A stretch of 64,000 bases of DNA from Syntrophobacter sp. SbD2 (GTDB lineage: Bacteria > Desulfobacterota > Binatia > UBA9968): assembly GCA_945889495.1 (NCBI GenBank), contig CAMDBU010000001.1:17877-81876 (forward strand). Reading direction: 5' to 3'. The notes under the pieces were generated by a model, which saw only the letters and a program-made list of their open reading frames with translations, made no database searches and was not told the DNA's origin. Below, piece after piece: positions 11,626 to 55,226 of this stretch. The stretch's first letter is position 1; each line of letters starts with the position of its first letter. A program made the translations under genes and the position numbers.

Positions 11626-11710
11626 TTAACCACGAAAAACACGAAAGGCACGAAAGTTGGGATTCGGAATCCTTTTCTTCTTTTCGTGTCTTTTCGTGTT
11701 TAAAAATCTT
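11626..11710. repeat. Hairpin repeat, A family (ACCACGAAAAACACGAAAGGCACGAA…), with nested palindrome GGATTCGGAATCC.
   Basis: The same ~40-nt core recurs at 35614-35672 and 37031-37112, with variants at 38341-38390 and 52895-52960. Confidence 0.6.
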
Positions 11711-35613: not shown

Positions 35614-35672
35614 GGGATTAACCACGAAAAACACGAAAGGCACGAACTTCGTGTTTTTCGTGGTTAAAATCT
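35614..35672. repeat. Hairpin repeat, A family (perfect stem AACCACGAAAAACACGAA / TTCGTGTTTTTCGTGGTT).
   Basis: Seen in the sequence. It lies between the hydrolase start and the stop of the first Rieske gene. Confidence 0.65.
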
Positions 35673-37030: not shown

Positions 37031-37112
37031 GGGGATTAACCACGAAAAACACGAAAGGCACGAAAATTGGAGAAATAATTTCGGAATTTATTTTCGTGTT
37101 GTTCGTGGTTAG
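37031..37112. repeat. Hairpin repeat, A family.
   Basis: GGGGATTAACCACGAAAAACACGAAAGGCACGAA…TTTTCGTGTTGTTCGTGGTT. Confidence 0.65.
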
Positions 37113-38340: not shown

Positions 38341-38460
38341 CGTGAAAGAGTGTTTCACCACGAAGGCACGAAGACCACGAAGGTGTCGGAGGGAGGGCGC
38401 AGCATGCTGCGCCCTTACAAATCGTGATTCCCTTTTTGTGTCCTTTGCGTTCTTTGCGGC
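38341..38460. repeat. Composite repeat block: an A-family variant (CACCACGAAGGCACGAAGACCACGAAGG), a perfect 20-bp palindrome GGGCGCAGCATGCTGCGCCC (38395-38414), and CTTTGCG heptads.
   Basis: Seen in the sequence. The palindrome recurs at 42518-42537. Confidence 0.6.
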
Positions 38461-39689: not shown

Positions 39690-39810
39690 TTTCTCTCGCA
39701 AAGGCGCAAAGACGCCAAGTTCGGAGAAGAAAAGTTTGATATCGTTGCCAAGGACTTTGCTTCGCATTCTCCGACCTTTGCGACCTTAGCGCCTTTGCGA
39801 GAGATAATCC
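39690..39810. repeat. CTTTGCG heptad-repeat element (C family).
   Basis: …GACCTTTGCGACCTTAGCGCCTTTGCGAG…. Related arrays occur at 38425-38460, 48488-48530, 54010-54075 and 54137-54150. Confidence 0.5.
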
Positions 39811-40609: not shown

Positions 40610-40619
40610 GGGAGCAGTT

Positions 40620-40710
40620 GGCAGTTGCTAGTTGTCAGTGGTCAGTTTGCAGATTCGGATCTTAACCGCCTTTAACTGAGAACTGGCAACTGACCACTGA
40701 CAACTATTCT
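40620..40710. repeat. Heptad tandem repeats (G/T)CAGTTG x5 that form a long inverted repeat with AACTGGCAACTGACCACTGACAACTA.
   Basis: Seen in the sequence, immediately 3' of maiA. Confidence 0.55.
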
Positions 40711-41355
40711 TCATTCCGCGTCCGCCTGTTTCTCCGGCGCGGCGTCGGCGAAGGCTGGGAGGGCGTTGCAGTTTTTTTCAATCTCTAAAATCGTCGGGTA
40801 CTTGGCCAGGTCGCAGCCGTAGCGCCGGGCGTTGCCGAGTTGCGGGATTAAACAGATATCCGCGAGGGTCGGTGTGTCGCCGAAGCAAAATTTGCCGCGC
40901 TTGGACTGGGCGACGATCATTTCTTGCAGCGCCGCCAGGCCGAGGTCGATCCAATGTTGGGCCCATTTGTTGACCTGCTCGTCGGTCTGGTTGTAGCTCG
41001 CCTTGACGTAATTCAACACGCGCAGGTTTTGAATCGGGTGGACTTCGCAGGCGATCACCAGCGCCATGCTGCGCACCAGCGCTTTGTCGGCGGGGTCTTT
41101 CGGTAACAGCGGCGGATGGGCATGGGTCTCGTCGAGATACTCGATGATCGCCAAGGATTGCGTGAGGATTCTGCCGTTGTCCTCCAGCGCCGGCACCAGC
41201 GCTTGGGGATTCAGCTTTGTGTACGCCGGCATCAACTGCTCGCCGCCGCCGCGGCGCAGATGGATCGGCGCTTGCTCGCAGCTCAAGCCTTTTAGATTGA
41301 GCGCGATGCGCACGCGGTAGGAAGCGGAGCTGCGGAAGAAGGTGTAAAGTTTCAT
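40711..41355 (-). CDS. maiA: Maleylacetoacetate / maleylpyruvate isomerase (glutathione S-transferase zeta class), 214 aa.
   Basis: MKLYTFFRSSASYRVRIALNLKG is the GST-zeta signature. Confidence 0.75.
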   Translation of the reverse strand: MKLYTFFRSSASYRVRIALNLKGLSCEQAPIHLRRGGGEQLMPAYTKLNPQALVPALEDNGRILTQSLAIIEYLDETHAHPPLLPKDPADKALVRSMALVIACEVHPIQNLRVLNYVKASYNQTDEQVNKWAQHWIDLGLAALQEMIVAQSKRGKFCFGDTPTLADICLIPQLGNARRYGCDLAKYPTILEIEKNCNALPAFADAAPEKQADAE

Positions 41356-41374
41356 GGGCGCCCTCGGAGTGGAG

Positions 41375-41485
41375 TGATGGAGTGTTGAAGATCTGGAGTG
41401 TTGGAGTGATGGAGTATTGGAATGTTGGGTCTGGATTCCGACCAACCCATTACTCCATCACTCCCGTACTCCAACACTCCAATCT
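41375..41485. repeat. TGGAGTG heptad tandem repeats that form a ~35-bp inverted repeat.
   Basis: GGAGTGATGGAGTGTTGAAG…GGAGTGTTGGAGTGATGGAGTATTGG // CCCATTACTCCATCACTCCCGTACTCCAACACTCC. Confidence 0.55.
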
Positions 41486-43765: not shown

Positions 43766-44053
43766 ATGGATATTACCCAGGATATTCAATCCTTGACGAC
43801 ATTTCGTAACAACTCCGTGGCATTTCTTCAGCAACTGAAAAAAAATAAACGCCCGGTTATCTTGACGGTTAACGGTAAGGCCGCCGCCGTTGTCCAGGAC
43901 GCCGAAGCGTATCAACGTTTGCTCGACATCGCGGCGCGGGCCGATGCCGTGGAAGGCATCCGCCAAGGACTTGAGGATGTCGCGAAAGGCCGTACCCGTC
44001 CAGTCCGGGAGTTCGTGGCGTCGTTCCGGCGGGATCATGGCATACCGCGTTGA
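43766..44053 (+). CDS. Phd/YefM-family type II antitoxin, 95 aa.
   Basis: …RPVILTVNGKAAAVVQDAEAYQRLLD… is the Phd/YefM fold signature. RBS AAGGAGG. Confidence 0.8.
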   Translation: MDITQDIQSLTTFRNNSVAFLQQLKKNKRPVILTVNGKAAAVVQDAEAYQRLLDIAARADAVEGIRQGLEDVAKGRTRPVREFVASFRRDHGIPR

Positions 44054-44333
44054 GATTACGGCTCGCGCTGAAAGCGACCTGGCTGACATTTACGGGCGCA
44101 TACAAGCCGAGACTTCACCCCAAGCAGCCAAGTGGTTTAATGGCATGGCGAGAGCGATGACCAGTCTTGAGAAGTACCCAAAGCGCGCTCCATTCACTCC
44201 CGAGAGTCGCGGCTTGCGGCACTTTCTCTACGGCAGGAAGCCTAAAGTCTATCGGATCATTTTCAAAATCGATGAAAAAACGTCTACCGTCCATGTTTTA
44301 CACGTACGCGCGCCAGGACGCGACCGGATGTAG
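44037..44333 (+). CDS. RelE/ParE-family type II toxin, 98 aa. It overlaps the antitoxin by 17 nt.
   Basis: MAYRVEITARAESDLADIY…YRIIFKIDEKTSTVHVLHVRAPGRD is the ParE/RelE pattern. Confidence 0.75.
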   Translation: MAYRVEITARAESDLADIYGRIQAETSPQAAKWFNGMARAMTSLEKYPKRAPFTPESRGLRHFLYGRKPKVYRIIFKIDEKTSTVHVLHVRAPGRDRM

Positions 44334-45809: not shown

Positions 45810-46220
45810 TTACGGCCTTTGTTGCCCCCGGACCAATCCATCGACGTAAGGGATCGCGTCTTCGATGCACATTTGGAAGCGGCGGGTGGCGGCTGGGTCG
45901 GCGCGTTCGGTGGCGCGCAGGGATTTTAGTAGGTCGAGCATCTCCGGCGAAGCCAATGCAACCGTTCCGTCCAAGGCGGCTTGCCAGACTTCTTCAGCGG
46001 CGTCGTTGAGCGCTTCGGCGATGAAGGACGGCGAATGCTCTTCGCGCCGTTCCCAGGCTACCGTGACGAGAAACGCGCGCGCCTCGGGATTGGCTTCTTG
46101 GCGAAAGGCCTCAACCAATGCCGGCACAAGCTCTTCTTCGGCTTCGAGCAATGCCGTCATCGCGGCATCGTCGTCGCCGGCGCGGAAGGCTTTTAGGCTG
46201 TCGGTGATTTTAGTTTCCAT
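45810..46220 (-). CDS. Hypothetical acidic protein, 136 aa, alpha-helical.
   Basis: Intact ORF with codon bias. No recognisable motif. Confidence 0.45.
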   Translation of the reverse strand: METKITDSLKAFRAGDDDAAMTALLEAEEELVPALVEAFRQEANPEARAFLVTVAWERREEHSPSFIAEALNDAAEEVWQAALDGTVALASPEMLDLLKSLRATERADPAATRRFQMCIEDAIPYVDGLVRGQQRP

Positions 46221-46252
46221 GGGTTTTACTCGGGCAGTTTTTCTTAGAATTA

Positions 46253-46346
46253 CTTCCTTCCCCTCGACGGGGAAGGATAGAGGTAGGGGTGCTCAATTGA
46301 ATTCCCCTCACCCTTGCCCTCTCCCGCAAGGGGAGAGGGTACTCGG
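46253..46346. repeat. GC-rich hairpin repeat, E family (CCTTCCCCTCGACGGGGAAGG … CCCTCTCCCGCAAGGGGAGAGGG).
   Basis: Homologous to 50447-50552 in the same orientation. It explains the spurious …PLPQGERV… ORF. Confidence 0.6.
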
Positions 46347-46390
46347 ATGCGGTCGGTAAGGTTAGTTGGTCCACTTTGATCGGCCTACAG

Positions 46391-47023
46391 TTAACGCTGC
46401 CAGATTCCGATCAATTCTTTCGACTCCACCACGTCAGCGAATTTCTCAATTCGTTTCAGCGCAGCGTTCTGCCCTTCTTCCGTATAAGTCCCGACGCAGT
46501 CGCGGACGACGACCATCAGATGGCCGCGGTTGTGGCCGTCGCGGACGGTCATCTCGACGCCGCCGTCGGTGGTGCAGCCGATCATGACTATCGTCGTCGC
46601 GCCGCGGTTGAGCATGATGGTTTCGAACTCGTTGCCGATGAACATGCTCGGTCTTCGCTTATCGATGACGATGTCTTCTGGCGCGGGTTTGAACGGCGCC
46701 ATGATTTCCCAGTTGGTGCTGCCCTTCAGACGGCGCGGTTTTAGTTTGCTCGGATGATCGACCTTTTCGTTCCTCATCGCTCGGCGAATCCAGGTGACCG
46801 CTTCCTCGCTCCAGAGAAACGGCGTCTGGCGCGTGTAGACGGTTTTGATCCCGGCTTCGGCCGCGGCGGCGATCAGCGGCGGCGCGATGCGGATCAGCGC
46901 GTCTTTGTTGAACGCGCCGCCGGCTTGGTCGTTTTGCATATCCCAGACCAGCAGGACAGTCTTGGCTGGATCGACGATTTCTTTTAGTTCGGTGGGTATC
47001 TGACGGCCGGCGAATTCAATCAT
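46391..47023 (-). CDS. Isochorismatase-family cysteine hydrolase, 210 aa.
   Basis: …VLLVWDMQND…, Lys, and Cys in …VMIGCTTDGGV…. Confidence 0.7.
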   Translation of the reverse strand: MIEFAGRQIPTELKEIVDPAKTVLLVWDMQNDQAGGAFNKDALIRIAPPLIAAAAEAGIKTVYTRQTPFLWSEEAVTWIRRAMRNEKVDHPSKLKPRRLKGSTNWEIMAPFKPAPEDIVIDKRRPSMFIGNEFETIMLNRGATTIVMIGCTTDGGVEMTVRDGHNRGHLMVVVRDCVGTYTEEGQNAALKRIEKFADVVESKELIGIWQR

Positions 47024-47193
47024 TGGCGTGGTCTCCTCTTTCTTCGCTAACTACCTTTATCGGAGTCCTTCGACGGGCTCAGAGCCTGTCCCGAGTCCAT
47101 TGAGGGAACGAACGGAGGGGAGTTGTTGCGAATGTGGCTTCTCCGTTCATGCTGAGGTTCTCGAAGCATTCCGAACCATATTTCAGCTAGATG

Positions 47194-48183
47194 CTAATAG
47201 TTGCCGCCCTTGGCTTCAAACTCTTTGCGCACCTCTTCGGCGATGCGTAGGTCGAAAAACTGTTCCGCCGCCAGCGGTTTGTCGAGTTTGAGCGGGATGC
47301 GCAGTTCATGTTCGAGGATGTTCTTCACGCCTTCGGCCGATGGCACGCCGGGAATCCCCGCTGGAAAGGCGCGGGTGTAGCTACGGATCGCTTCGGTCAA
47401 CATCGGCTTGGTGATGTTCCTAATGCGCAGACGTTTGAGCGCGATGTCGGCGGCTTCTTCGGGGCGGTCGCGGACGAATAGCAGCGAGCGGGTCATGGCT
47501 CTGATCCAGCGCTTTACCTGGGCGGGATTGTCTTTGAGCTTCTGGTTGGTAACGACGTAGCCCTGAAACGGCAGCGGAAAGATATCGCCCAAGTAGGCGA
47601 GCTTGCGCAGCCCCTCGCGCTCCGCCGCGACGGTGCCGGCGGGATCGAGGACGACGGCGGACACCGCGCCGCTTTTGACGCCGAGGATTTTGTCGCCGAT
47701 GCCCGTGCCCAGGGAGATTTTGGTTAAGTCTTTGGCCGCGACGCCGGCGCGTTCGGCGAACAGAGTGATAAACCGGTCTTCGCTATCTCCGATCAGGGCG
47801 GCGCCGACCTTTTTGCCCTTGAGGTCGGTGCCCGATGTTATGCTCGGATGGACGACCAAATACCAGGTGGGCTTTTCGGTTTGGTAGAAAATCGCTTTGA
47901 GCGGCGCGCCGCGCACCGCACCACGCAGGCCGCTTCCGCCGGCGCCACTGAAGTCGATCTCGCCGCTCAATAACGCGGCGATGCCGGCGGGACCGCCGAT
48001 GGCGATGGTTTCATTGTCAAATCCCTCGTCGCGGAAAAACTTGCGCTCGTCGGCGCTGTAGACCGTCAAGTAATTCAAGTTGGCGCCGGGGATGGCGGTG
48101 CGAATTTTTTCGGCGTGGGCGTTGGCGGGGAGTATGGCAACCCAGATGACCAGCGCGACTAGAAAATGGAGTTTGCCGATCAT
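47194..48183 (-). CDS. NMT1/THI5-like ABC substrate-binding protein. An orphan.
   Basis: Signal peptide MIGKLHFLVALVIWVAILPANAHA. The track's TTG start at 48195 is less likely than ATG 48183. Confidence 0.7.
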   Translation of the reverse strand: MIGKLHFLVALVIWVAILPANAHAEKIRTAIPGANLNYLTVYSADERKFFRDEGFDNETIAIGGPAGIAALLSGEIDFSGAGGSGLRGAVRGAPLKAIFYQTEKPTWYLVVHPSITSGTDLKGKKVGAALIGDSEDRFITLFAERAGVAAKDLTKISLGTGIGDKILGVKSGAVSAVVLDPAGTVAAEREGLRKLAYLGDIFPLPFQGYVVTNQKLKDNPAQVKRWIRAMTRSLLFVRDRPEEAADIALKRLRIRNITKPMLTEAIRSYTRAFPAGIPGVPSAEGVKNILEHELRIPLKLDKPLAAEQFFDLRIAEEVRKEFEAKGGNY

Positions 48184-48285
48184 GGTCCCTCTCAAGTTGA
48201 AGTTAACATGCGACGTTCAGGATTAGCCAGGTTTGCAAAGTCGGTGACAGCGGGGATCGATGGGTATCGCTGCGCTCCCCCCTTC

Positions 48286-48489
48286 CTACGGGACGCGTGG
48301 CTCGTATTGCAGTAACGCTCCGGGCTCGGGACAGTAGGGCAAACAGTCGGCGCAGCCGGTGCATTCGTTTTCGAGCACTTCGTACATGTGATGGATGTCC
48401 TGCATCTTCGGATGGACGGCACGCTCGGGGCAGACTTCGCGGCACAGGCCGCAGGCGATGCACAGGGATTCGACGATTTTGACTTTCAT
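48286..48489 (-). CDS. 2x[4Fe-4S] ferredoxin, 67 aa.
   Basis: CIACGLCREVCP and CTGCADCLPYCP. C-terminal …PRVP is shared with the other ferredoxin. Confidence 0.75.
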   Translation of the reverse strand: MKVKIVESLCIACGLCREVCPERAVHPKMQDIHHMYEVLENECTGCADCLPYCPEPGALLQYEPRVP

Positions 48490-48531
48490 TGCTTTGCGCC
48501 TTTGCGTCTTTGCGGGAGAAAATTCCAATTC

Positions 48532-49272
48532 TTAAGCCGCGCCACCCAACGCCCGGCTGGGTTCCGGCGCCCAGGGGCGCAGGAGGAAATCGAAGACTTC
48601 TTCAATCGGTTTTTGATCCTCCGGCGTTAGCGCGTAGGCGTCGATTTGATATTTGCCTTCCATGAAATGCATGAGCTCTTCGGCGGACTGGCTGTGCAGT
48701 TGGTGGCGGATCAGGTCGTCGTCGATGACGCTCAGCGTCGCGGTGATGCCAAGGCAGGCCATGGATTCGTTGTAATAGTGCTGGCCGGCGCGGGCGAGCG
48801 GATGGATGTGGGGAAACATGGCGGTCATGCCGAAGTAGGAAAGCTTCGGCTGGGTGTTGGCGCGCGGGTCGTCCATCAACTCTTCTTCGCGCTTGATGAA
48901 GCCGCCGCGCAGCATGACGTCGGCGTGGAGCTGGCCATGTTTCACTTCATCCCAGATCTGCCGGGCGCGCATGCGTTGGAGGTCGATGTATTTCGGCTGT
49001 TGGTCGGTGCTAACCGAAAGGATCTGCGTCGACATTTGTTTGAGCGACATGAACGGTCCCTCGGCGGCGTAACCGCCGCGCGCGCGGGCGGCTTTGTACT
49101 CGTCGCTGCCCGACGCCAAATCGGTCTCCGCGGCTTTGAGCGCTTGCAGGACTAATTTATCCCACAGCGGCAGGCAGCGCTCGGTCTGGCGCAGACGGAA
49201 GTCGACGCCGGGGCCGGTGAAACCTGTTGGGTAGACCCATTTGTCTAGGAAGTCTTTTAGGATGGCGTGCAT
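48532..49272 (-). CDS. Hypothetical metalloprotein B (246 aa) with three conserved His motifs. Possibly a ferritin-like or heme-oxygenase-like di-iron fold.
   Basis: WDEVKH, FPHIHP, HSQSAEELMH. Diverged paralogue of 49642-50394. Confidence 0.45.
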   Translation of the reverse strand: MHAILKDFLDKWVYPTGFTGPGVDFRLRQTERCLPLWDKLVLQALKAAETDLASGSDEYKAARARGGYAAEGPFMSLKQMSTQILSVSTDQQPKYIDLQRMRARQIWDEVKHGQLHADVMLRGGFIKREEELMDDPRANTQPKLSYFGMTAMFPHIHPLARAGQHYYNESMACLGITATLSVIDDDLIRHQLHSQSAEELMHFMEGKYQIDAYALTPEDQKPIEEVFDFLLRPWAPEPSRALGGAA

Positions 49273-49318
49273 TTAACGCTCCGATTCTACGGGTTCCAAA
49301 AGTTCCAATCGTTTTCGG

Positions 49319-49591
49319 TCACGGGACGCGCGGCCAGCGCTTGTTCTCGGTCCAGACCTCCTGCGGCGGTGGGACCATGGAGCGGCCGGTTTTGGTTTCG
49401 ACGATGGAGCCTTCGGCTGGGCAATACATCAGGCAGACCGTGCAACCGGGATAGGTGCAGCGCTCGTCGATTTCCAAAAAATGCTGCGAGGACGGCGCGA
49501 CTACCACCGCGTTGATTTCGATTTCGCGGCAAACGACGTAGCACATGCGGCACTCCGTACATTTCGCGTGATCGATTTTAAGAGTCGGCAT
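49319..49591 (-). CDS. 2x[4Fe-4S] ferredoxin, 90 aa.
   Basis: CTECRMCYVVCR and CTYPGCTVCLMYCP. Ends …WPRVP. Confidence 0.8.
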   Translation of the reverse strand: MPTLKIDHAKCTECRMCYVVCREIEINAVVVAPSSQHFLEIDERCTYPGCTVCLMYCPAEGSIVETKTGRSMVPPPQEVWTENKRWPRVP

Positions 49592-49641
49592 CGGATCAAT
49601 TCCAGATTACAAATTTCAGATTCCAAATTAACCGGACGTCG

Positions 49642-50394
49642 TCAGTCGATGTCGGCTTGCACGGTTACCTCGCCGGCTTTTTCCGCGGCCATGCCGAGGA
49701 CGAAGCGGGCGGTTTCTTCGAGGAAAAACAGGTAGTCGCGCTTGGTTTCGACGCACAAGCGCTTGGCCAGTTCGATGTCGATATCTTTGTGAATGTACTG
49801 TTCCACTTGGTGGCGGCCCATCAAGATATGGCTGCGGGTTTCGGCCAGCTGGCTGTGAAAAACCGCGCACAGGGATTCATCCGGCAATAGTTTGGCGAAG
49901 CGCTCGGTCCAGGAAAGTTCGATGACTTTGGCGCCGAGATTGAGCGCGGCGATGCGGATGTGGTGCGGATAATTGGCGAGCGCGCGCAGGCAAAAGATGT
50001 AGGCGCCGGTGCGCGTGGCGATGGCGAATTGGCCGTAGGGATGGGCGAATAGCGCGCGCTGGGTCGGCACCAAGCGGCGGCGCAGGATCTCGTCGCAGTA
50101 TTGCATCTCCTGAGTCGACTCGTCATAGGTTTGCTTGCCGAACAGATAGGCGACGCCGGGCGGGTAGTCGTTCAAATTGATGCCTTGGGCCCAACCGCCG
50201 TAGACGTAATAGAGCATGCGCTTTAGCGTCCACAGCCGGGCGAGCAAGCGGAAGCAGTGATCGTTGGTAAATTTGCCGGCGCGGGCGAACTCAATGACCG
50301 CGTCCATCGGTGTGACCGCGGCTTCTTGCTCGCTTTGTTGGAGCAGCTGTGCGGCGAGGGCGGCGCGGGGTTTGGCGGATGGCGAGGCTGGCAT
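49642..50394 (-). CDS. Hypothetical protein A (250 aa), a diverged paralogue of B.
   Basis: YDESTQE (Q replaces the motif-1 His), YPHHI, HSQLAETRSH. Motif spacing matches B. Confidence 0.45.
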   Translation of the reverse strand: MPASPSAKPRAALAAQLLQQSEQEAAVTPMDAVIEFARAGKFTNDHCFRLLARLWTLKRMLYYVYGGWAQGINLNDYPPGVAYLFGKQTYDESTQEMQYCDEILRRRLVPTQRALFAHPYGQFAIATRTGAYIFCLRALANYPHHIRIAALNLGAKVIELSWTERFAKLLPDESLCAVFHSQLAETRSHILMGRHQVEQYIHKDIDIELAKRLCVETKRDYLFFLEETARFVLGMAAEKAGEVTVQADID

Positions 50395-50446
50395 TTAGAA
50401 GTTTGCAGTTCAGCAATTGGTCGGAGTGTCTTCCTTCTGATCCGAT

Positions 50447-50552
50447 TTCCTCTCCCTCGACGGGGGAGGATTAAGGTGGGGGTGCCCGGCAAGTTTAATT
50501 AAATGCGTAGCACCCCCACTCTAACTCTCCCCCGTCGAGGGGGAGAGAATCG
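50447..50552. repeat. GC-rich hairpin repeat, E family (CCTCTCCCTCGACGGGGGAGG … CTCTCCCCCGTCGAGGGGGAGAG).
   Basis: Direct copy of 46253-46346. It explains the spurious …LTLPRRGGENR… ORFs. Confidence 0.6.
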
Positions 50553-50587
50553 GAAAGGAGGGGGAAGAAAATACAGCAGACAATGGG

Positions 50588-51709
50588 TCAGCTCGCCGCC
50601 GCCAGCAACCACTCATGCCCTTTCTTCGAGATCGGCGTCAGGTTGTCGGCGATCAACGCCCAGGTTTCACCGTTGTCTTCGCTGCAAAAAACCTCGCCGC
50701 CGGTGGTGCCGCCGAAGATGGCGCAGACGCCGTCGACTTCTTCGGCGCAGAGCGCGCCGAACTCGTGCTTCAAGCTCGCGGGCAAGCCGCCGCCTAGGCG
50801 CTCCCAGCTCTTGCCGCAATCCTTGCTGCGATAAATCTTTCCTTCGGCGCGCGCGGCGGGGCCGGCTTTGCGCCAAGTCGCCGGATTATGTTCGGCGGCG
50901 GAGACGAACATCAGGTCGGGGTTTTTTGGATTCCAAGTAAAGCCGTCGGGGTAAACATCCGCCGCCCAGTCGGTCGCCGTCCAACGTTCCCAATTGCCGC
51001 CGCCGCTATGAGTTACGTATAAGCCGGCGCCGCCGGTGACGTAAATGTTATCGGGCTTGCGCGGATCGATGAGGCAGCGGTGCACGTCGTAAAAATGTTC
51101 CACCGGGCGACTTTTGTCTTTGTAGAAACCGACGGTGTTGAGTTGTTTCCAGCTCTGGCCCAAGTCGGTACTTTTTAAAAATGCGCCCTGCTCGACGCAA
51201 GCGTAAATGGCGTTCTGGTCGAAGGGATCGAAGGTGATGAACTTGGTGTGCGCCACATGGGGCGCCGCCGGGAAGGACCACTCGCCGACGCTTTCCACTG
51301 CGCGCATCGACGGCAACTCGCGCCAGTGCGCGCCTAGGTCTTCGCTAACGAAGATATGCGCCGGTTGAGTGCCGCAGTACACGCGCGCTTTGCCGTCGAC
51401 GACGTTAGTGGCCAGGCTGTAGACATCGTGGTAGGCGATGCCGTTGTCGCGCCGCTCCCAAGTCTTGCCACCGTCGGCACTGGCGTGCACCGAGCCGAAG
51501 AAAGCGCCGGCGAAGATAGTGTTGGTGGTTTTTTCAAAGACGATGGCGCTGATATGCTGGCCGCGCAGGGCGCGTTGCACTTCACGCCACTTGCCGACGC
51601 TCTCGCGTTCGAGCTGCACCAGGCCGTCTTTGGTCGCGACCCAGAGCTGGTTGGAGCGCGCGCCCGCCGAATAAACATTGGTCCCGCCGTGGGAAAGTCC
51701 GATCGCCAT
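50588..51709 (-). CDS. BNR/Asp-box repeat beta-propeller protein. Paralogue of 42544-43512.
   Basis: SADGGKTW, STDLGQSW, SKDCGKSW, SEDNGETW. Confidence 0.65.
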   Translation of the reverse strand: MAIGLSHGGTNVYSAGARSNQLWVATKDGLVQLERESVGKWREVQRALRGQHISAIVFEKTTNTIFAGAFFGSVHASADGGKTWERRDNGIAYHDVYSLATNVVDGKARVYCGTQPAHIFVSEDLGAHWRELPSMRAVESVGEWSFPAAPHVAHTKFITFDPFDQNAIYACVEQGAFLKSTDLGQSWKQLNTVGFYKDKSRPVEHFYDVHRCLIDPRKPDNIYVTGGAGLYVTHSGGGNWERWTATDWAADVYPDGFTWNPKNPDLMFVSAAEHNPATWRKAGPAARAEGKIYRSKDCGKSWERLGGGLPASLKHEFGALCAEEVDGVCAIFGGTTGGEVFCSEDNGETWALIADNLTPISKKGHEWLLAAAS

Positions 51710-51835
51710 GATTCACCTCCGCTGACTTTGTGAAATTCACTTTAGCAATCCCGGTTCTTCGCCGTCAATGGCCGGGCGCGAGATTCACCTCGGCGCCATT
51801 GACGGCGCGGCGCCGCTTCGGTTAGGGTCGCGGCC

Positions 51836-52855
51836 ATGGGTTCGGTGCTGCCGATCGTTCGCCGCGGTTTATCGTTGCTGGTGTTTATCACGCTGAGTTT
51901 GTTCGGTCTGGAAAGCTCAGCGCAGGTGAGTAAATCTACCACCGCGTACGTTTCCGATTCCGCCGGTGTGTTGCCGCTGTGGATCGCTAAGGAGGCCGGC
52001 ATCTTCGCGCGCAACGGCATCGACGCCCAGGCGGTGCGGGTGCACGCCAACATCGGCGTCATGGCGCTGCTCGCTGGCGAATTGCAATTTGTCCTGGGCT
52101 CAGCCCCGGTGGTGCTGGAAAGCGCGCTGCGCGGGTCCAATCTGGTCTACGTTGCCGGGGGCATGTCGACGCTCGACTTCGTTCTCGTGTCGCGGCCGGA
52201 AATCAAAAGCGCCGAGCAACTCAAAGGCGGGGTCGTCGGCCTATCGGCGCTGCGTGGCGCTAATCCCACCGCCACCCGCTTCGCCCTGCAAAAACTCGGG
52301 CTCGCGCCCAAGGATGTTTCGCTGCTGGTGATCGGCGGCACCAGCGAGCGCATCGCCAGCCTGCGCTTGGGGAAAATTCACGCCACCTTGTTCAGCCCGC
52401 CGCAAAATATCACCGCCCAACGGGAAGGCTTCAACGCCTTGGCCGATGTCGCCGAGTTGGGATTGCCCTTCGTCCATATCGGCGTGGCCACCAGCCGCGC
52501 GGTGATCCGCGACAAGCCGGAGCTTGTGCGCCGCTATGTGAAATCTCATCTCGAAGCGATCGCCGTGATGAAGACCGACCGCGAGTATGCGCTCAAAGTG
52601 TTGGCCAAGTATCTTGGCCAAATCAAAGACCGCGACGTGCTGGCGCAATCCTACGACTCCGCCGCGCCGGACAACCGCATCTCGCGCAAGCAGTATCCGT
52701 CCGTCGCCGGCCTGCAAATGGCGCTGGATTTACTCGCCGACGATAATCCCAAGGCGAAGAGCGCGAAGCCGGACGACTTCGTCGACAACCGGTTCATCAA
52801 GGAACTCGACGACGGCGGCTATATCGATGGCTTGTATAGGGCGAAGGCGCGGTGA
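51836..52855 (+). CDS. NMT1/THI5-like ABC substrate-binding protein. An orphan.
   Basis: Signal peptide and family pattern. Confidence 0.7.
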   Translation: MGSVLPIVRRGLSLLVFITLSLFGLESSAQVSKSTTAYVSDSAGVLPLWIAKEAGIFARNGIDAQAVRVHANIGVMALLAGELQFVLGSAPVVLESALRGSNLVYVAGGMSTLDFVLVSRPEIKSAEQLKGGVVGLSALRGANPTATRFALQKLGLAPKDVSLLVIGGTSERIASLRLGKIHATLFSPPQNITAQREGFNALADVAELGLPFVHIGVATSRAVIRDKPELVRRYVKSHLEAIAVMKTDREYALKVLAKYLGQIKDRDVLAQSYDSAAPDNRISRKQYPSVAGLQMALDLLADDNPKAKSAKPDDFVDNRFIKELDDGGYIDGLYRAKAR

Positions 52856-52975: not shown

Positions 52976-53938
52976 ATGTTCATCAGTCTGAATAAAACTT
53001 TGCTGGCTGCTTTAGCGTTGCTGTTCTGCGCTGGCGCTAGCGCTCAGGCCAAGCCGATCACGCTGGCGTACAACACCAACTCGCTGAACGTCATGCTGCC
53101 GCTCCTGGTCGCCCAGGAGTTGGGCTTCTTCACCGCCGAGGGGTTCGAGGTGACGCCGGTCTATGTGCGTAGCGGGCCGACGGCGATGGCGGCAATGGTG
53201 AGCGGCTCGGCGGATTATTCGATCGTCGGCTCGACGACGGTGGTGCAGGCCATCGCCAAGGGGATTCCCGCTCTGGTGATCGGCAATTATGTGCGCCATG
53301 TCAATTGGATGCTCATGGGCGGCGCCGGCGTCACCAGTCTCAATGCGATCAAGGGCCAGGTGGTCGGCGTGACCTCGGCCGGCGGCATGACGGAATTCTT
53401 AACCGTGGAAGCGCTGGCGCGGCGTGGTCTCAAGCGCGACCGCGACTATCGGATTCACTACGCTGGCAACAGTCCGGCGCGGGTGTTAGCGCTGGAGACG
53501 AAAATCATCCAAGCCGCGGCGTTTTCGCCGGGAGAGCGAGTGGCGTTGGAGCCCAAGGGTTATTCCTTGCTGATGGACATGGTCCAGGTGATCCCGGAAT
53601 TTCCCCTGAGCATCCTCGCCAGCAGCCGGCGCAAGGTCGAGAGCAATTCGGCGGAAGTGGAAATGTTTCTGCGCGCGCTACACCGGGCCATGGAAGTGAT
53701 TCGCACCGACAAAGATCGCGCCGCCGCGGCGGCGTTCAAAAAGATCCCGCGCAGCGAACTGGCCAGGGAGCGCAAGGCACTCGACTATCTGGCCGACGAT
53801 TATTCCATCACAATTAGTAAAGAGAATATCCAAGCGCTGATCTATGCCGCCGGCGTCGAAGCCGACGCGCGCAAACTCGGCGGCGCGGAGAGGTTTTACG
53901 CGGCGGAGCCGCAGACCAGGGCGGTGGGGCGGCGGTGA
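52976..53938 (+). CDS. NMT1/THI5-like ABC substrate-binding protein. An orphan.
   Basis: Signal peptide MFISLNKTLLAALALLFCAGASAQA. Confidence 0.7.
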   Translation: MFISLNKTLLAALALLFCAGASAQAKPITLAYNTNSLNVMLPLLVAQELGFFTAEGFEVTPVYVRSGPTAMAAMVSGSADYSIVGSTTVVQAIAKGIPALVIGNYVRHVNWMLMGGAGVTSLNAIKGQVVGVTSAGGMTEFLTVEALARRGLKRDRDYRIHYAGNSPARVLALETKIIQAAAFSPGERVALEPKGYSLLMDMVQVIPEFPLSILASSRRKVESNSAEVEMFLRALHRAMEVIRTDKDRAAAAAFKKIPRSELARERKALDYLADDYSITISKENIQALIYAAGVEADARKLGGAERFYAAEPQTRAVGRR

Positions 53939-54173
53939 GGGCAGGAAGATATGGGGCCAGAGAGCGCTGATCGCGGCAGAGTCGCAGCCGAAGTTCGGAA
54001 GATCTCGCGCCAAGCACGCAAAGGGCGCAAAGGAAGAAATAATTCAATTCTTAACTTTGCGACCTTTGCGACCTTGGCGGGCCTGGCGCGAGGAATAACT
54101 AAGATCGAGAATTATTGGCGCTGACCATTTGCGCATGCCGCGCAAAGGGCGCAAAAAAAATTCTTGATTGTAG

Positions 54174-54218: not shown

Positions 54219-55226
54219 ATGGTGAAACTCTACATTTTCGGCGCGGTGATCCTTGGCGTGGTATTGAATGCAAATTCTGCCGCCGCCGCGGCCAAGATGG
54301 TGCTTGGCCATGGCGCGCTCAATGCGCGCATCGCGCCGCTGTGGATCGCCCATGAGCAAAAGTTTTTCGCCAAATATGGCGTCGAGTCGACGGTGATTTT
54401 GGTGCGCCAGATTCAGATCATGGTCAGCGGGCTCGGTACCGGCGAGATCGATTTGGCGTTGTCTTCGGGCAGCACGCTGCTCGGCGCTTCATCCGGTGGG
54501 CTCGATGCCAAGATGGTGGCGGCGCTCAATGGCCGGGTGAATTACGATCTGGTGGCGGCGCCGAGCATCAAAACCGTCAAAGACCTGCGCGGCAAGCGCT
54601 TCGGCATTCAAGCCTTTGGCGGCGGACTGTGGATGGGCGCCATGCTCGGCTTGGAATCGCTAGGCGTCGATCCGCAGCGCGACAATCTAAACATTCTCCA
54701 GGTCGGCGATCAGTCGGTGATCGCCCAAGCCCTCGAAGCCGGCAGTATCGATGCCGCGGCGCTCGACGGCGTGTTTAGCCGGCGGTTGAAGCAAAAGGGC
54801 TTTACCGTGTTGGCCGAGTTCAGCAACGCCAACATTCCCACCATCGGTCTCGGCTTGCTCGCGCGGACTCACACGATTCGCGACCGCCAGGAGGCGCTCG
54901 ACGGCGCGCTGCGCGGCTTGGCCGAAGCGGTGGCGTTTATTCTCAGCCCGAAATCCAAACCGGCGGTGTTGAAGACCATCACGCAGCACCTGCGCATCCA
55001 CGATGCGGCGACGGCGGAGGAAGGCTATCAGGATTTAATTACCGGCCTCGACCGCAAGCTCATCCCATCGATGGACGGCTTGCGCAACACCCAACGGTTG
55101 CTTAAGCCGCGCAATCCCAAGCTGGAAAATATCAAGGTCGAAGAGCTGATCGACGACCGTATCGTCAGGAGACTCGACGAGAGCGGTTTCATCGGCCGTT
55201 TGCAGGCGGCGTACGGAATCAAGTGA
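54219..55226 (+). CDS. NMT1/THI5-like ABC substrate-binding protein. An orphan.
   Basis: Signal peptide and family pattern. Confidence 0.7.
   Translation: MVKLYIFGAVILGVVLNANSAAAAAKMVLGHGALNARIAPLWIAHEQKFFAKYGVESTVILVRQIQIMVSGLGTGEIDLALSSGSTLLGASSGGLDAKMVAALNGRVNYDLVAAPSIKTVKDLRGKRFGIQAFGGGLWMGAMLGLESLGVDPQRDNLNILQVGDQSVIAQALEAGSIDAAALDGVFSRRLKQKGFTVLAEFSNANIPTIGLGLLARTHTIRDRQEALDGALRGLAEAVAFILSPKSKPAVLKTITQHLRIHDAATAEEGYQDLITGLDRKLIPSMDGLRNTQRLLKPRNPKLENIKVEELIDDRIVRRLDESGFIGRLQAAYGIK

Follow-up and report, generated by a model that had tools for sequence, protein, structure and literature searches.

A conserved four-gene cassette from uncultured bacteria encoding a candidate ferredoxin-driven di-metal oxygenase

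Layout of the locus

The window analysed was a stretch of 64,000 nucleotides from Syntrophobacter sp. SbD2 (assembly GCA_945889495.1, contig CAMDBU010000001.1). Four co-directional genes, A, Fdx1, B and Fdx2, are found on the minus strand of the window (Table 1), with spacers of 50, 46 and 42 nt between A and Fdx1, Fdx1 and B, and B and Fdx2, respectively. The same four open reading frames had been described in an initial annotation of the DNA, and they were recovered at identical positions. An alternative TTG start for Fdx2 is present at 48528.

Table 1. Features of the cassette and its surroundings (positions in the window).
Feature	Position	Strand	Remarks
Gene A	49642-50394	minus	250 aa
Fdx1	49319-49591	minus	90 aa
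Gene B	48532-49272	minus	246 aa
Fdx2	48286-48489	minus	67 aa counted from ATG
Candidate ligand stretch of B	48667-49062	minus	six ligand codons
Candidate ligand codon E71	49060-49062	minus	
Candidate ligand codon E109	48946-48948	minus	
Candidate ligand codon H112	48937-48939	minus	
Candidate ligand codon E169	48766-48768	minus	
Candidate ligand codon E199	48676-48678	minus	
Candidate ligand codon H202	48667-48669	minus	
BNR/Ycf48-like beta-propeller gene	50588-51709	minus	Pfam; upstream, co-directional; context only
NMT1/SsuA-like solute-binding protein	47194-48195	minus	Pfam/NCBIfam; downstream, co-directional, outside core
Isochorismatase-family cysteine amidohydrolase	46391-47023	minus	Pfam/NCBIfam; downstream, co-directional, outside core

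The upstream beta-propeller gene is syntenic in Binatia and constitutes neighbour cluster 2, present in 25 loci. In the survey of ORF clusters, the amidohydrolase cluster was found in 13 loci and that of the solute-binding protein in 11, placed among the Binatia-type loci L015-L042. The closest PDB relatives of the amidohydrolase are biuret hydrolase and RutB. A specifically NicF-like assignment was rejected, as NicF (3uao) scored only 7.5e-7 and both of these scored better. An Rfam scan of positions 46000-52000 returned only sub-threshold miRNA-hairpin look-alikes on a long inverted repeat. Scans for promoters (1 promoter-like site, 1.6 expected) and terminators (15 terminator-like sites, 9.9 expected) were uninformative, and the gene content gave no sign of a CRISPR, mobile-element or phage origin.

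Distribution of the cassette

The gene order A-Fdx1-B-Fdx2 was found in 72 of 80 loci, counted as one per species genome, and four of the eight exceptions were interrupted by contig ends. This arrangement is far beyond chance. The hosts belong to at least five lineages, namely Binatia, Methylomirabilota, Dehalococcoidia, Gammaproteobacteria and Alphaproteobacteria, so the linkage of A and B to ferredoxins, for which the initial annotation had proposed a survey, is conserved across phyla. In the loci surveyed the cassette is confined to uncultured bacteria, mostly from soil and groundwater. No description of it was found in the literature searched.

The pairing with a ferredoxin extends to distant relatives of B. 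An adjacent ferredoxin gene was observed in four of the six distant relatives with readable flanks (L009, L013, L095 and L096). A metagenome scan using a four-sequence alignment of distant relatives gave nine loci, and the same relative-ferredoxin pairing was seen in three more metagenome loci of the L009 clade.

The ferredoxins

Fdx1 and Fdx2 both have the features of 2x[4Fe-4S] ferredoxins, namely a length in the range of 55-100 aa and eight cysteines arranged in two cluster-binding motifs. All eight cysteines are invariant in an alignment of 11 orthologues and relatives. Both proteins match the Pfam model Fer4_21 above its cut-off of 35 bits (Fdx1 36.8 bits, Fdx2 39.1 bits), and Fdx2 also matches Fer4 with 38.6 bits. 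The two CxxCxxCxxxCP motifs of Fdx2 are canonical. In Fdx1 the cysteines are located at positions 11, 14, 17, 21, 45, 50, 53 and 57 and form one CxxCxxCxxxC and one Cx4CxxCxxxCP motif; the regular spacing first read for every cluster holds for Fdx2 and for the first motif of Fdx1, but not for the second. At its C-terminus Fdx1 is extended by about 30 aa, and this extension (TGRS[LM]VPPP..W) is conserved. Between Binatia and Stellaceae, Fdx1 (about 70% identical) is better conserved than B (58%) and A (about 50%).

Fdx2 is 33% identical to Fdx1 (E 5e-7). The ferredoxins of the distant clades are 36-41% identical to Fdx2 and gave no match with Fdx1, and an Fdx2-type ferredoxin also adjoins the single-copy distant relatives of B. 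In one case, P0029, B and Fdx2 are fused in frame. The shared PRVP ending of the two ferredoxins had been taken as a sign that a two-gene unit was duplicated. Both proteins do end in PRVP, but the tail is not conserved in orthologues and is therefore no evidence for duplication. There is no ferredoxin reductase within the cassette. Among aerobic oxygenases, electron donors of the 2x[4Fe-4S] type are unusual.

Family and fold searches

Sequence searches with A and B gave no significant match in Pfam, NCBIfam or PDB, and no Pfam match for either at E values of up to 1. The curated ferritin-like models of Pfam and NCBIfam did not match A or B, nor was a sequence match to the PaaA/PaaC and BoxB models observed. 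A joint alignment (A3) of 29 members was assembled from 15 B-family, eight distant and six A-family sequences. At E values of up to 10 against Pfam these members gave only noise, apart from the distant relative P0345 with sub-threshold matches to COQ7, Ribonuc_red_sm (RNR-R2) and Rubrerythrin. TENA_THI-4/PQQC, Haem_oxygenas_2 and DUF3050 were absent at this threshold.

The structure models of both A (moderate confidence, pLDDT 70) and B matched heme-oxygenase-like and ferritin-like di-iron proteins, and the best matches were heme-oxygenase-like di-metal oxidases. The best Foldseek match of the B model was an UndA homologue (TM 0.52, probability 0.99). The structural similarity is remote, with TM values of about 0.5 and Foldseek E values of 0.08-0.3, and the margin between heme-oxygenase-like and ferritin-like matches is small. 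Ferritin-like matches of B ranked below the heme-oxygenase-like ones (MiaE-like 11.7, PaaA 10.4, Dps 9.8, R2lox 9.7), MiaE was found by Foldseek at TM 0.47/0.56, and Dps, bacterioferritin and encapsulated ferritin were among the fold and profile matches. The predicted structure of B has the seven helices of the heme-oxygenase-like fold, three core and four auxiliary, in the order auxiliary 1-2, core 1, auxiliary 3, core 2-3, auxiliary 4, as in heme-oxygenase-like di-metal oxidases. It also has the Glu and His on core alpha1 (E109/H112) and the Glu on core alpha2 (E169) that are characteristic of these enzymes. The arrangement of three His and three carboxylates with HxxxD/ExxH on core alpha3 is not found in B.

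The profile and Foldseek searches suggested in the initial annotation thus gave no curated family, and structure matches to di-iron proteins. Its reading of the proteins as ferritin-like or heme-oxygenase-like di-iron enzymes is supported by the fold matches, by the E...ExxH...E...ExxH ligand pattern and by the ferredoxin linkage. As one part of a joint reading of all four genes that is somewhat probable as a whole, B would be a helical-bundle protein of the heme-oxygenase-like/ferritin-like di-metal-carboxylate kind.

Candidate metal ligands in B

The candidate di-metal set in B consists of E71, E109, H112, E169, E199 and H202, with Q195 as a possible addition. The spacing read from the sequence, E71-X37-E109xxH112 ... 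E169-X29-E199xxH202, is a duplicated E-X(28-37)-ExxH motif. All six ligand columns are invariant in the 23 B-type and distant sequences of the joint alignment, and column 195 is Gln in 22 of these and Asn in one. E198, D118, H155 and H157 are further conserved residues near the site. Core alpha3 of B reads Q195-x3-E199-x2-H202 instead of the HxxxD/ExxH of heme-oxygenase-like di-metal oxidases, so the predicted ligand set is two His (plus Gln) and four carboxylates. B is likely, judging from this conservation, to be the catalytic di-metal subunit.

Two weak profile alignments point in the same direction. In one of them (E 0.25), the UndA homologue 3oql has its residues E102, H105 and E160 opposite E109, H112 and E169. 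In the other, the C-terminal half-profile aligns E169...E199xxH202 with the E...ExxH of MmoX (E209...E243xxH246; E 0.008) and of RNR R2 (E 0.046); AurF and encapsulated ferritin are also aligned by this half-profile.

The site had originally been defined by three His motifs. Their letters were found in B (107-112, 153-158 and 193-202) and in A (90-96, 142-147 and 180-189), but the motifs do not define the site, which is better described by the set above. The first His of motif 3 (H193) lacks conservation and was rejected as a ligand. H155 and H157 of motif 2 are invariant in 32 aligned B-family sequences; they are unlikely core ligands because they are conserved only within the B family and not in distant relatives or A.

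Gene A

Direct comparison of A and B gave only weak matches (BLASTP E 0.002, hhalign probability 40%). These are too weak on their own, and paralogy therefore rests on a bridging profile: in hhalign, the profile of the single-copy relatives gave E 8e-20 to the A family and E 8e-28 to the B family. The two proteins are thus diverged paralogues, as had been proposed. At the six ligand columns of B, A reads K58, E92, Q95, K156, T186 and H189, and the six A-family sequences read K/E/(Q or H)/K/(T or I)/H, with His at position 95 in some A orthologues. Because of these columns A is regarded as a degenerate partner. A non-catalytic role had previously been suggested as a possibility from the Gln; the site is indeed degenerate, but four positions differ (K58, Q95, K156 and T186), not the Gln alone. 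A is interpreted as an ancient paralogue in which three of the four carboxylates (to K58, K156, T186) and usually one His (to Q95) have been lost.

A is homologous to the predicted catalytic subunit and does not have its metal ligands, as is typical of inactive paralogue subunits. It is probably metal-free with a heme-oxygenase-like helical fold, and by analogy it most likely joins B in a heteromer as a structural or effector subunit. Comparable pairs are PaaC with PaaA and, in the bacterial multicomponent monooxygenases, the beta subunit with the alpha subunit.

The selective change of the site in A bears on the possibility that A and B are metal-free or heme-binding proteins of the heme-oxygenase fold, such as a TenA-like thiaminase, a PqqC-like cofactor-less oxidase or a ferredoxin-dependent heme oxygenase, in which the Glu and His residues would serve catalysis or structure and would not bind metal. 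Ferredoxin is the reductant of cyanobacterial and plant heme oxygenases, which fits the cassette. This explanation is nevertheless very improbable. E-X37-ExxH...E-X29-ExxH is a di-metal signature and is selectively destroyed in A (E to K, K and T), as in inactive partner subunits, the N-terminal helix of B has no invariant His that could be a proximal heme ligand, and the TENA_THI-4/PQQC and heme-oxygenase Pfam models were absent among the 29 family members at E 10.

Gene neighbourhood

A LigB-type gene is located directly upstream of the cassette, in the same direction, in 23 loci. In a lineage about 30% identical, the array UbiD-LigB-A'-B'-Fdx-MFS was observed. Another distant lineage has the order Fdx-relative-NicX-hydrolase-Mo-hydroxylase, where NicX matches PDB 7cn3 with E 6.5e-94. 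Some relatives are found near genes for CoA-transferase, CoA-ligase and enoyl-CoA hydratase, and Rieske oxygenases occur among the neighbours. In Binatia and Stellaceae the cassette lies partly amid housekeeping or unrelated genes, so a catabolic role is not uniform.

The latter context, with the cassette alone amid housekeeping genes in several genomes, would suit a ferredoxin-dependent di-iron peroxidase/oxidase or iron-handling module acting on no organic substrate. B would then reduce H2O2 or O2 like rubrerythrin or symerythrin, or store and release iron, with the ferredoxins donating electrons as Bfd does to bacterioferritin. Four carboxylates and two His are the pattern of ferritin, bacterioferritin and rubrerythrin, and the matches to Dps, bacterioferritin and encapsulated ferritin and the weak Rubrerythrin, COQ7 and RNR-R2 matches of one distant relative agree with it. 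Such a module is considered unlikely, since B, with 246 aa, seven or more helices and auxiliary helices, resembles an enzyme and not a cage-forming ferritin of 150-170 aa, and a conserved degenerate partner subunit is an oxygenase trait. The cassette also recurs beside genes for ring-cleavage dioxygenases (LigB-type and NicX), a UbiD decarboxylase, hydrolases and CoA-transferases, which argues against such a module.

Proposed function

The favoured reading, of moderate confidence, is that the four genes encode one ferredoxin-driven heteromeric di-metal oxygenase system, probably a ring hydroxylase. Points against it are the lack of a curated family, the remote structural similarity, the QxxxExxH on core alpha3, the unusual type of donor, the absence of a reductase gene, the partly unrelated gene context in Binatia and Stellaceae and the moderate confidence of the A model. 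B would bind two metal ions via its six candidate ligands, most likely Fe-Fe and possibly Fe-Mn, and A would pair with B as a structural or effector subunit. Fdx1 and Fdx2 would be dedicated donors that re-reduce the oxidised di-metal centre with single electrons, making it ready in every turnover for the binding and activation of O2. The clusters of di-iron oxygenases require re-reduction by ferredoxins or reductases (bioRxiv 10.1101/2020.07.29.227702). In the likeliest reaction, an aromatic or N-heteroaromatic compound would be hydroxylated, or oxygenated in another way, and thereby readied for ring cleavage.

An O2-independent reductive or radical enzyme was also considered, in which the ferredoxins would power reductive chemistry at the di-metal site (dehydroxylation, N-O/N-N reduction or dearomatisation). 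Low-potential carriers of the 2x[4Fe-4S] type are a classic feature of anaerobic metabolism, 72 of the 80 loci retain two different ferredoxins, the cassette has no reductase gene, and Dehalococcoidia and Methylomirabilota of low-oxygen habitats are among the hosts. BoxA of the aerobic benzoyl-CoA oxygenase, however, also contains two [4Fe-4S] clusters, and the neighbouring LigB, NicX and Rieske oxygenases need O2. Furthermore, the characterised relatives by fold and ligand pattern all use O2 or H2O2 (PMC13108848). A reductive enzyme is therefore regarded as no more probable than the peroxidase or iron-handling module.

Within the oxygenase reading, a further and rather doubtful proposal is that the cassette represents a minimal multicomponent di-metal oxygenase of an unrecognised class. 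It would combine a heme-oxygenase-like fold of about 250 aa and ferritin-type ligands (four carboxylates, two His, plus Gln) with an obligate metal-free paralogue and two private 2x[4Fe-4S] ferredoxins of distinct roles, one feeding the di-metal site and the other docking on A as a gate or effector. If true, this class would be a bridge between two di-iron oxygenase superfamilies and would include the first heme-oxygenase-like enzyme with complete built-in electron delivery, with which uncultured phyla, mostly of soil and groundwater, would hydroxylate aromatic or N-heterocyclic rings. With ferritin-type ligands placed on a scaffold of the heme-oxygenase-like kind, the cassette is a test case for the relation of these superfamilies.

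The cassette is unnamed, and the kind of enzyme itself is already known. It may stand for a hydroxylation step, so far unrecognised, in the breakdown of aromatic compounds or N-heterocycles in abundant, uncultured lineages, mostly of soil and groundwater (Binatia, Methylomirabilota/Rokubacteria, Stellaceae and Dehalococcoidia). The catalytic subunit, degenerate partner and two ferredoxins would form a genetically hard-wired set, and co-expression of the four genes is feasible.

Comparison with known systems

The closest structural matches of the B and A models are the heme-oxygenase-like di-metal oxidases/oxygenases (HDOs: UndA, CADD, BesC, SznF, RohS, HrmI and AetD), a rapidly expanding class for which hardly any physiological electron donor has been identified. 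The ligands of the UndA homologue are aligned with E109/H112 on core alpha1 of B and with E169 on core alpha2. The SznF/RohS subgroup (3His/4carboxylate) has an extra Glu, as E71 in B, at a Gly-Pro break in auxiliary alpha2 (PMC13133933, PMC13108848). HDOs are defined by HxxxD/ExxH on core alpha3 with three His and three carboxylates (PMC13133933, PMC13108848). The cassette differs from them in its QxxxExxH, the lack of a Pfam match, the TM of about 0.5, the conserved degenerate partner and the two dedicated 2x[4Fe-4S] ferredoxins. According to a review, a protein effector is not required by any HDO examined to date (PMC13108848).

MboAB, reported in 2026, is the only HDO with a dedicated redox partner (PMC13108848, PMC13185094). 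The mangotoxin acetylenase MboA resembles the cassette in that a co-encoded, dedicated electron-transfer protein, MboB, is needed for multiple turnovers (PMC13185094). The reconstituted reaction needs both MboB and NADH (PMC13185094), and MboB is not a 2x[4Fe-4S] ferredoxin pair. In addition, no degenerate paralogue subunit is described for MboA/MboB, which belongs to a natural-product biosynthesis pathway. If the favoured reading is true, the cassette would be a rare case of an enzyme of this class with its own electron donors.

Other systems share parts of the arrangement. BoxA passes electrons via its two [4Fe-4S] clusters to the di-iron protein BoxB, and bacterioferritin is a ferritin-like di-iron protein whose gene lies beside that of Bfd, a small electron-exchanging ferredoxin. 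Compared to PaaA/PaaC and BoxAB, the cassette lacks PaaB/D/E or a flavin reductase and its ferredoxins are small free-standing proteins. Bfd is a [2Fe-2S] protein, and bacterioferritin is a heme-containing 24-mer of about 160 aa subunits with no degenerate partner and another gene context.

The bacterial multicomponent monooxygenases (sMMO MmoX/MmoY, toluene and phenol hydroxylases) have the same duplicated E-X(28-37)-ExxH with four carboxylates and two His. Their subunits are larger (about 500 and 330-390 aa, compared to about 250 aa in the cassette), their ferredoxins are Rieske or plant-type and not 2x[4Fe-4S], and their gamma subunit, regulatory protein and reductase have no counterpart in the cassette. 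Four-component toluene monooxygenases resemble it in combining a catalytic and a homologous metal-free subunit with a small dedicated ferredoxin. Another soluble di-iron monooxygenase, HpdABCDE, makes 2,5-dihydroxypyridine for a NicX-type dioxygenase.

The four-gene cassette and its distribution

The four co-directional minus-strand genes of the initial annotation were present in the ORF list at exactly the positions first reported, and the motifs quoted for A and B and the PRVP tails of the two ferredoxins were likewise found in the sequences. The spacers between the genes are 50, 46 and 42 nt (A-Fdx1, Fdx1-B and B-Fdx2, respectively). No description of this cassette was found in the literature searched.

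Coordinates of the cassette genes and other features in the window
Feature	Position	Strand	Remark
Gene A	49642-50394	-	250 aa, ORF list
Fdx1	49319-49591	-	90 aa, ORF list
Gene B	48532-49272	-	246 aa, ORF list
Fdx2	48286-48489	-	67 aa, ORF list
A residues 62-93	50116-50211		most conserved stretch of A
Cassette spacers	49592-49641, 49273-49318, 48490-48531		about 140 nt together
GCAAAGNC x3 array	48492-48514		B-Fdx2 spacer
Inverted repeat arms	50441-50485, 50510-50554		24-nt loop
NMT1/SsuA-like protein	47194-48195	-
NMT1/SsuA-like proteins	51836-52855, 52976-53938, 54219-55226	+
maiA	40711-41445	-	maleylacetoacetate isomerase
Two overlapping small ORFs	43766-44333	+	first 43766-44053, second to 44333
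Tandem arrays	11631-11699, 35623-35646, 37041-37066, 38435-38458, 39697-39800, 40614-40705, 41370-41481, 54055-54079		intergenic, 7-9 nt period

Pattern-based scanning of 185,579 species, each represented by one genome, detected at least 138 loci encoding relatives of B; counts from a scan of this type are lower bounds. The best 80 of the 138 loci, all from MAGs, belong to Binatia (often labelled 'delta proteobacterium'), Methylomirabilota/Rokubacteria, Dehalococcoidia, Gammaproteobacteria (Immundisolibacteraceae) and many Alphaproteobacteria (Stellaceae). When the four window proteins were used as tblastn queries against these 80 loci, the order A-Fdx1-B-Fdx2 was found in 72. Four of the eight exceptions were cut by contig ends, one was without Fdx2, one had only B-Fdx2 and two (loci L054 and L056) had the variant order Fdx-LigB-like-A-B. 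The linkage of A and B to ferredoxins is thus kept in several lineages. Between Binatia and Stellaceae, Fdx1 is about 70% identical, B 58%, Fdx2 55-60% and A about 50%. The genes flanking the cassette were wholly different from lineage to lineage, which argues that selection acts on the cassette itself.

Family and paralogy of A and B

A and B lie outside every curated family searched. No match to Pfam or NCBIfam was obtained at E-values up to 1, and only noise was obtained against PDB sequences at E-values up to 10, so none of the three offered a family to which either protein could be assigned. Word-indexed searches returned 295 relatives of B and 536 of A. Where named, these were called 'hypothetical protein', with a B-Fdx2 fusion labelled 'ferredoxin' as the sole exception, and the relatives named by NCBI came from Candidatus Binatia, Deltaproteobacteria, Methylomirabilis and Eisenbacteria MAGs. 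Run exhaustively with HMMER against 1.84 billion cluster representatives, a B profile gave only 111 matches, mostly fragments, including about ten full-length distant relatives that had no Pfam matches either.

Direct comparison of A with B gave 20% identity in BLASTP (E 0.002) and an hhalign probability of 40%. A profile of the distant single-copy relatives matched both the A family (hhalign probability 99.2%, E 8e-20) and the B family (99.8%, E 8e-28). This bridging profile bears out the initial view of A and B as diverged paralogues and, as judged from sequence, marks the paralogy as ancient.

Predicted fold

AlphaFold2 gave all-helical models for both proteins, a good one for B (pLDDT 86, pTM 0.85) and a moderate one for A (pLDDT 70, pTM 0.73). 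Structural-match scores to the B model were 13.0 for TenA (1rtw), 13.0 for UndA (6p5q), 12.5 for CADD (8va9), 11.7 for HrmI, 11.5 for BesC and 10.7 for AetD, all heme-oxygenase-like, and 11.7 for a MiaE-like protein (8fhc), 10.4 for PaaA, 10.2 for PaaC and 9.3 for phenol hydroxylase, all ferritin-like. The A model gave the same ranking with lower scores (TenA 10.2, HrmI 9.2, CADD 9.1). With Foldseek, the top match of B was the UndA homologue 3oql (TM 0.52, probability 0.99), followed by MiaE (TM 0.47/0.56), every E-value being 0.08 or higher. On these rankings the modelled fold is best described as heme-oxygenase-like, with ferritin-like di-iron enzymes a close second, and it is remote from all solved structures. 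Both di-iron classes proposed in the initial annotation were thus retrieved, at a distance.

Residues 62-93 of A (YYVYGGWAQGINLNxYPPxVAYLFGKQ) are nearly invariant in 29 orthologues and have the lowest AlphaFold confidence (pLDDT below 50). They may form an interface that is ordered only in a complex.

Candidate metal site in B and its loss in A

Fifteen B-family, eight distant and six A-family sequences were aligned jointly. Six columns (E71, E109, H112, E169, E199 and H202, B numbering) were invariant in all 23 B-type and distant sequences, spaced E-X37-ExxH ... E-X29-ExxH; D118 was invariant in all 29 sequences, and position 195 was Gln in 28 of them and Asn in one. The predicted site has the pattern of the duplicated motif of di-iron-carboxylate proteins, with four carboxylates and two His. 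Weak profile-to-PDB matches would place these residues on real ligands. The whole-family profile aligned E109/H112/E169 to E102/H105/E160 of 3oql (E 0.25), and a C-terminal half-profile aligned E169...E199xxH202 to the E...ExxH of MmoX (E 0.008) and RNR R2 (E 0.046) and, also weakly, to that of AurF and encapsulated ferritins.

In the B model, using the heme-oxygenase-like helix nomenclature of PMC13133933 and PMC13108848, auxiliary alpha2 bears E71 at a Gly-Pro break, in a manner resembling the extra Glu of SznF and RohS. Core alpha1 bears E109/H112 and core alpha2 bears E169. Core alpha3 reads Q195-x3-E199-x2-H202, so that the first His of the canonical HxxxD/ExxH is replaced by Gln. Among the three motifs first proposed, motif 1 was right. 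The His residues of motif 2 (H155 and H157) were invariant in 32 aligned B-family sequences but not in the distant relatives or in A, and H193, the first His of motif 3, was not conserved.

In the A family these six ligand columns are occupied by K58, E92, Q95, K156, T186 and H189, with His at position 95 in two of six aligned orthologues and Ile at position 186 in one of the six. Three of the four carboxylates are lost, two of them to Lys. A is strongly constrained, with 85% mean column identity over 29 orthologues, and A' of the divergent A'-B' lineage (about 30% identical) has matching His-to-Gln and Glu-to-Lys changes. Inactive partner subunits are known in PaaC, the partner of PaaA, and in the beta subunits of multicomponent monooxygenases. 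Ligand loss combined with constraint in A is the same pattern, and PaaA, PaaC and monooxygenase beta-type subunits were all among the fold matches of B. By this analogy A would be a degenerate partner subunit of B; the suggestion that it is non-catalytic, made initially, gains from the degenerate columns at K58, Q95, K156 and T186.

A metal-free TenA/PqqC-like or heme-binding role would agree with the top fold matches, but is made highly improbable by a di-metal motif that is invariant in B-type and distant sequences and selectively lost in A, and by the lack of any match to TenA/PqqC-like or heme-binding family models. The ligand set would also suit a substrate-free peroxidase or iron-handling protein of the rubrerythrin or Bfr-Bfd kind, a role considered unlikely since the size, partner subunit and gene neighbours do not fit it.

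Ferredoxins

Fdx1 and Fdx2 scored 36.8 and 39.1 bits, respectively, with Fer4_21, the Pfam 4Fe-4S dicluster model (cut-off 35), and have eight Cys each. Two 4Fe-4S clusters per ferredoxin, as first described, therefore stand. Fdx2 has two CxxCxxCxxxCP motifs, but the second motif of Fdx1, after CxxCxxCxxxC, is Cx4CxxCxxxCP and not the CxxCxxCxxxCP originally read. No substitution of the eight Cys occurs in either ferredoxin family or in the single ferredoxins that accompany distant relatives. Between the clusters (Fdx1 numbering), E40 is found in all 11 sequences, distant relatives' ferredoxins included, and H37 in 10 of them. The PRVP tail shared by the window ferredoxins is not conserved in orthologues.

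Fdx1 shares 33% identity with Fdx2 (E 5e-7). Ferredoxins found singly beside distant relatives are 36-41% identical to Fdx2 and gave no tblastn match with Fdx1, a resemblance which suggests that Fdx2 is the ancestral partner. The Cx4C spacing of Fdx1 and its conserved C-terminal extension (about 30 aa) mark it as apparently derived. An adjacent ferredoxin was present in four of the six distant relatives with readable flanks (L009, L013, L095 and L096), was not found beside the other two (L012 and L097), and occurred in three more metagenome loci of the L009 clade. In the relative P0029 (JGI contig, 94.7 kb), a single 319-aa protein is an in-frame B-Fdx2 fusion, corresponding to 48286-49272 of the window. 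P0052 also looks like a fusion but is frameshifted, probably by sequencing error.

Gene neighbourhood and proposed function

Ring-cleavage dioxygenase genes adjoin family members in three separate branches. In the first, surveyed by ORF-based neighbourhood clustering that is crude in high-GC loci, 23 loci of Stellaceae and some Methylomirabilota have a divergent class III extradiol (LigB-type) gene immediately upstream in the same orientation; in L054 and L056 it lies within the cassette. The second, A'-B'-Fdx, has the order UbiD-family decarboxylase, LigB-type dioxygenase, 95-aa protein, A', B', Fdx, MFS transporter. The third, the clade of the relative P0301, has the order (alpha/beta hydrolase), Fdx, relative, (SnoaL), NicX, the NicX matching 2,5-dihydroxypyridine 5,6-dioxygenase (7cn3) at E 6.5e-94. 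In L100, a locus of this clade, NicX is followed by genes for an alpha/beta hydrolase, a molybdenum hydroxylase large subunit and TetR.

A known precedent is HpdABCDE, a soluble di-iron monooxygenase that supplies a NicX-type enzyme with 2,5-dihydroxypyridine. From this precedent and the ring-cleavage neighbours in three branches, we infer that A/B and the ferredoxins form a putative ring hydroxylase, or a related oxygenase, that precedes the cleavage step. An O2-independent reductive role would accord with low-potential ferredoxins, yet it is quite unlikely beside O2-dependent neighbours. In the proposed oxygenase cycle, the di-metal centre of B, in its oxidised state, would receive two electrons from reduced Fdx1 and Fdx2; because the cassette is without a reductase, cellular systems would charge the ferredoxins. 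The reduced centre would bind O2 and form a peroxo-level intermediate, as in UndA, SznF and ferritin-like oxygenases (PMC13108848; bioRxiv 10.1101/2020.07.29.227702). The substrate would then be oxygenated and the centre returned to its oxidised state. Fdx1 may dock on A, which would keep B in an active heteromer. The parts list and its conservation are observed; the cycle built on them is conjectural at each step. The cassette differs from characterised heme-oxygenase-like oxidases in the ligand set of B (two His plus Gln, and four carboxylates), in the added degenerate paralogue A, and in electron supply by two dedicated 2x[4Fe-4S] ferredoxins; the first dedicated redox partner in the field, MboB, was reported only in 2026 (PMC13185094).

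In Binatia, the window included, syntenic neighbours encode a BNR-like propeller, an NMT1-like binding protein, an isochorismatase-family amidohydrolase and maiA. DUF3500 is syntenic in other Binatia loci and absent from the window, and cupin and Rieske oxygenases are occasional. The window maiA, about 7 kb downstream of the cassette, scored 289.8 bits with TIGR01262 (cut-off 171), and its GST cluster was present in 10 surveyed loci, which hints at homogentisate- or gentisate-type ring catabolism in the vicinity. Housekeeping genes surround the cassette in several genomes.

The cassette-linked LigB-type protein (268-1332 in L056, and 22 other loci) is very divergent and scored below all NCBIfam cut-offs. 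In one alignment its DDQ is paired with PDH of the dioxygenase MhpB, so that Gln may stand in place of a possible metal-ligand His.

Clustered around the cassette are genes for four paralogous NMT1/SsuA-like solute-binding proteins, an expansion also seen in close Binatia relatives. Among the ORFs scanned at 44.5-56.5 kb, neither a permease nor an ATPase gene was seen beside them. By eye, the two overlapping small ORFs look like a Phd/YefM-type antitoxin followed by a RelE/ParE-type toxin.

Repeats in and around the cassette

A 45-nt inverted repeat, 84% complementary, occupies the 193-nt gap separating the BNR-like gene from gene A. Its transcript is predicted to fold with -93 kcal/mol (z = -9.3). 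Rfam gave sub-threshold miRNA-hairpin look-alikes only, and the core sequence was not found in 97 related loci searched. Candidate identities for the repeat are terminator, insulator and REP/MITE-like element.

The cassette spacers contain 4 of the window's 18 TTGGAAY words. Orthologous Binatia spacers (L015-L040) have dense TTGAACNNN / TGGAACNNN words with a 9-nt period, and cassette junctions in non-Binatia loci are short or overlapping; the words may be a lineage-specific RNA- or DNA-level signal. Short tandem arrays (such as CACGAAAGA, CTTTGCGAC and TGGAGTGT x7) occur in many other intergenic regions of the window, which suggests a genome-wide feature of the organism's leader regions.
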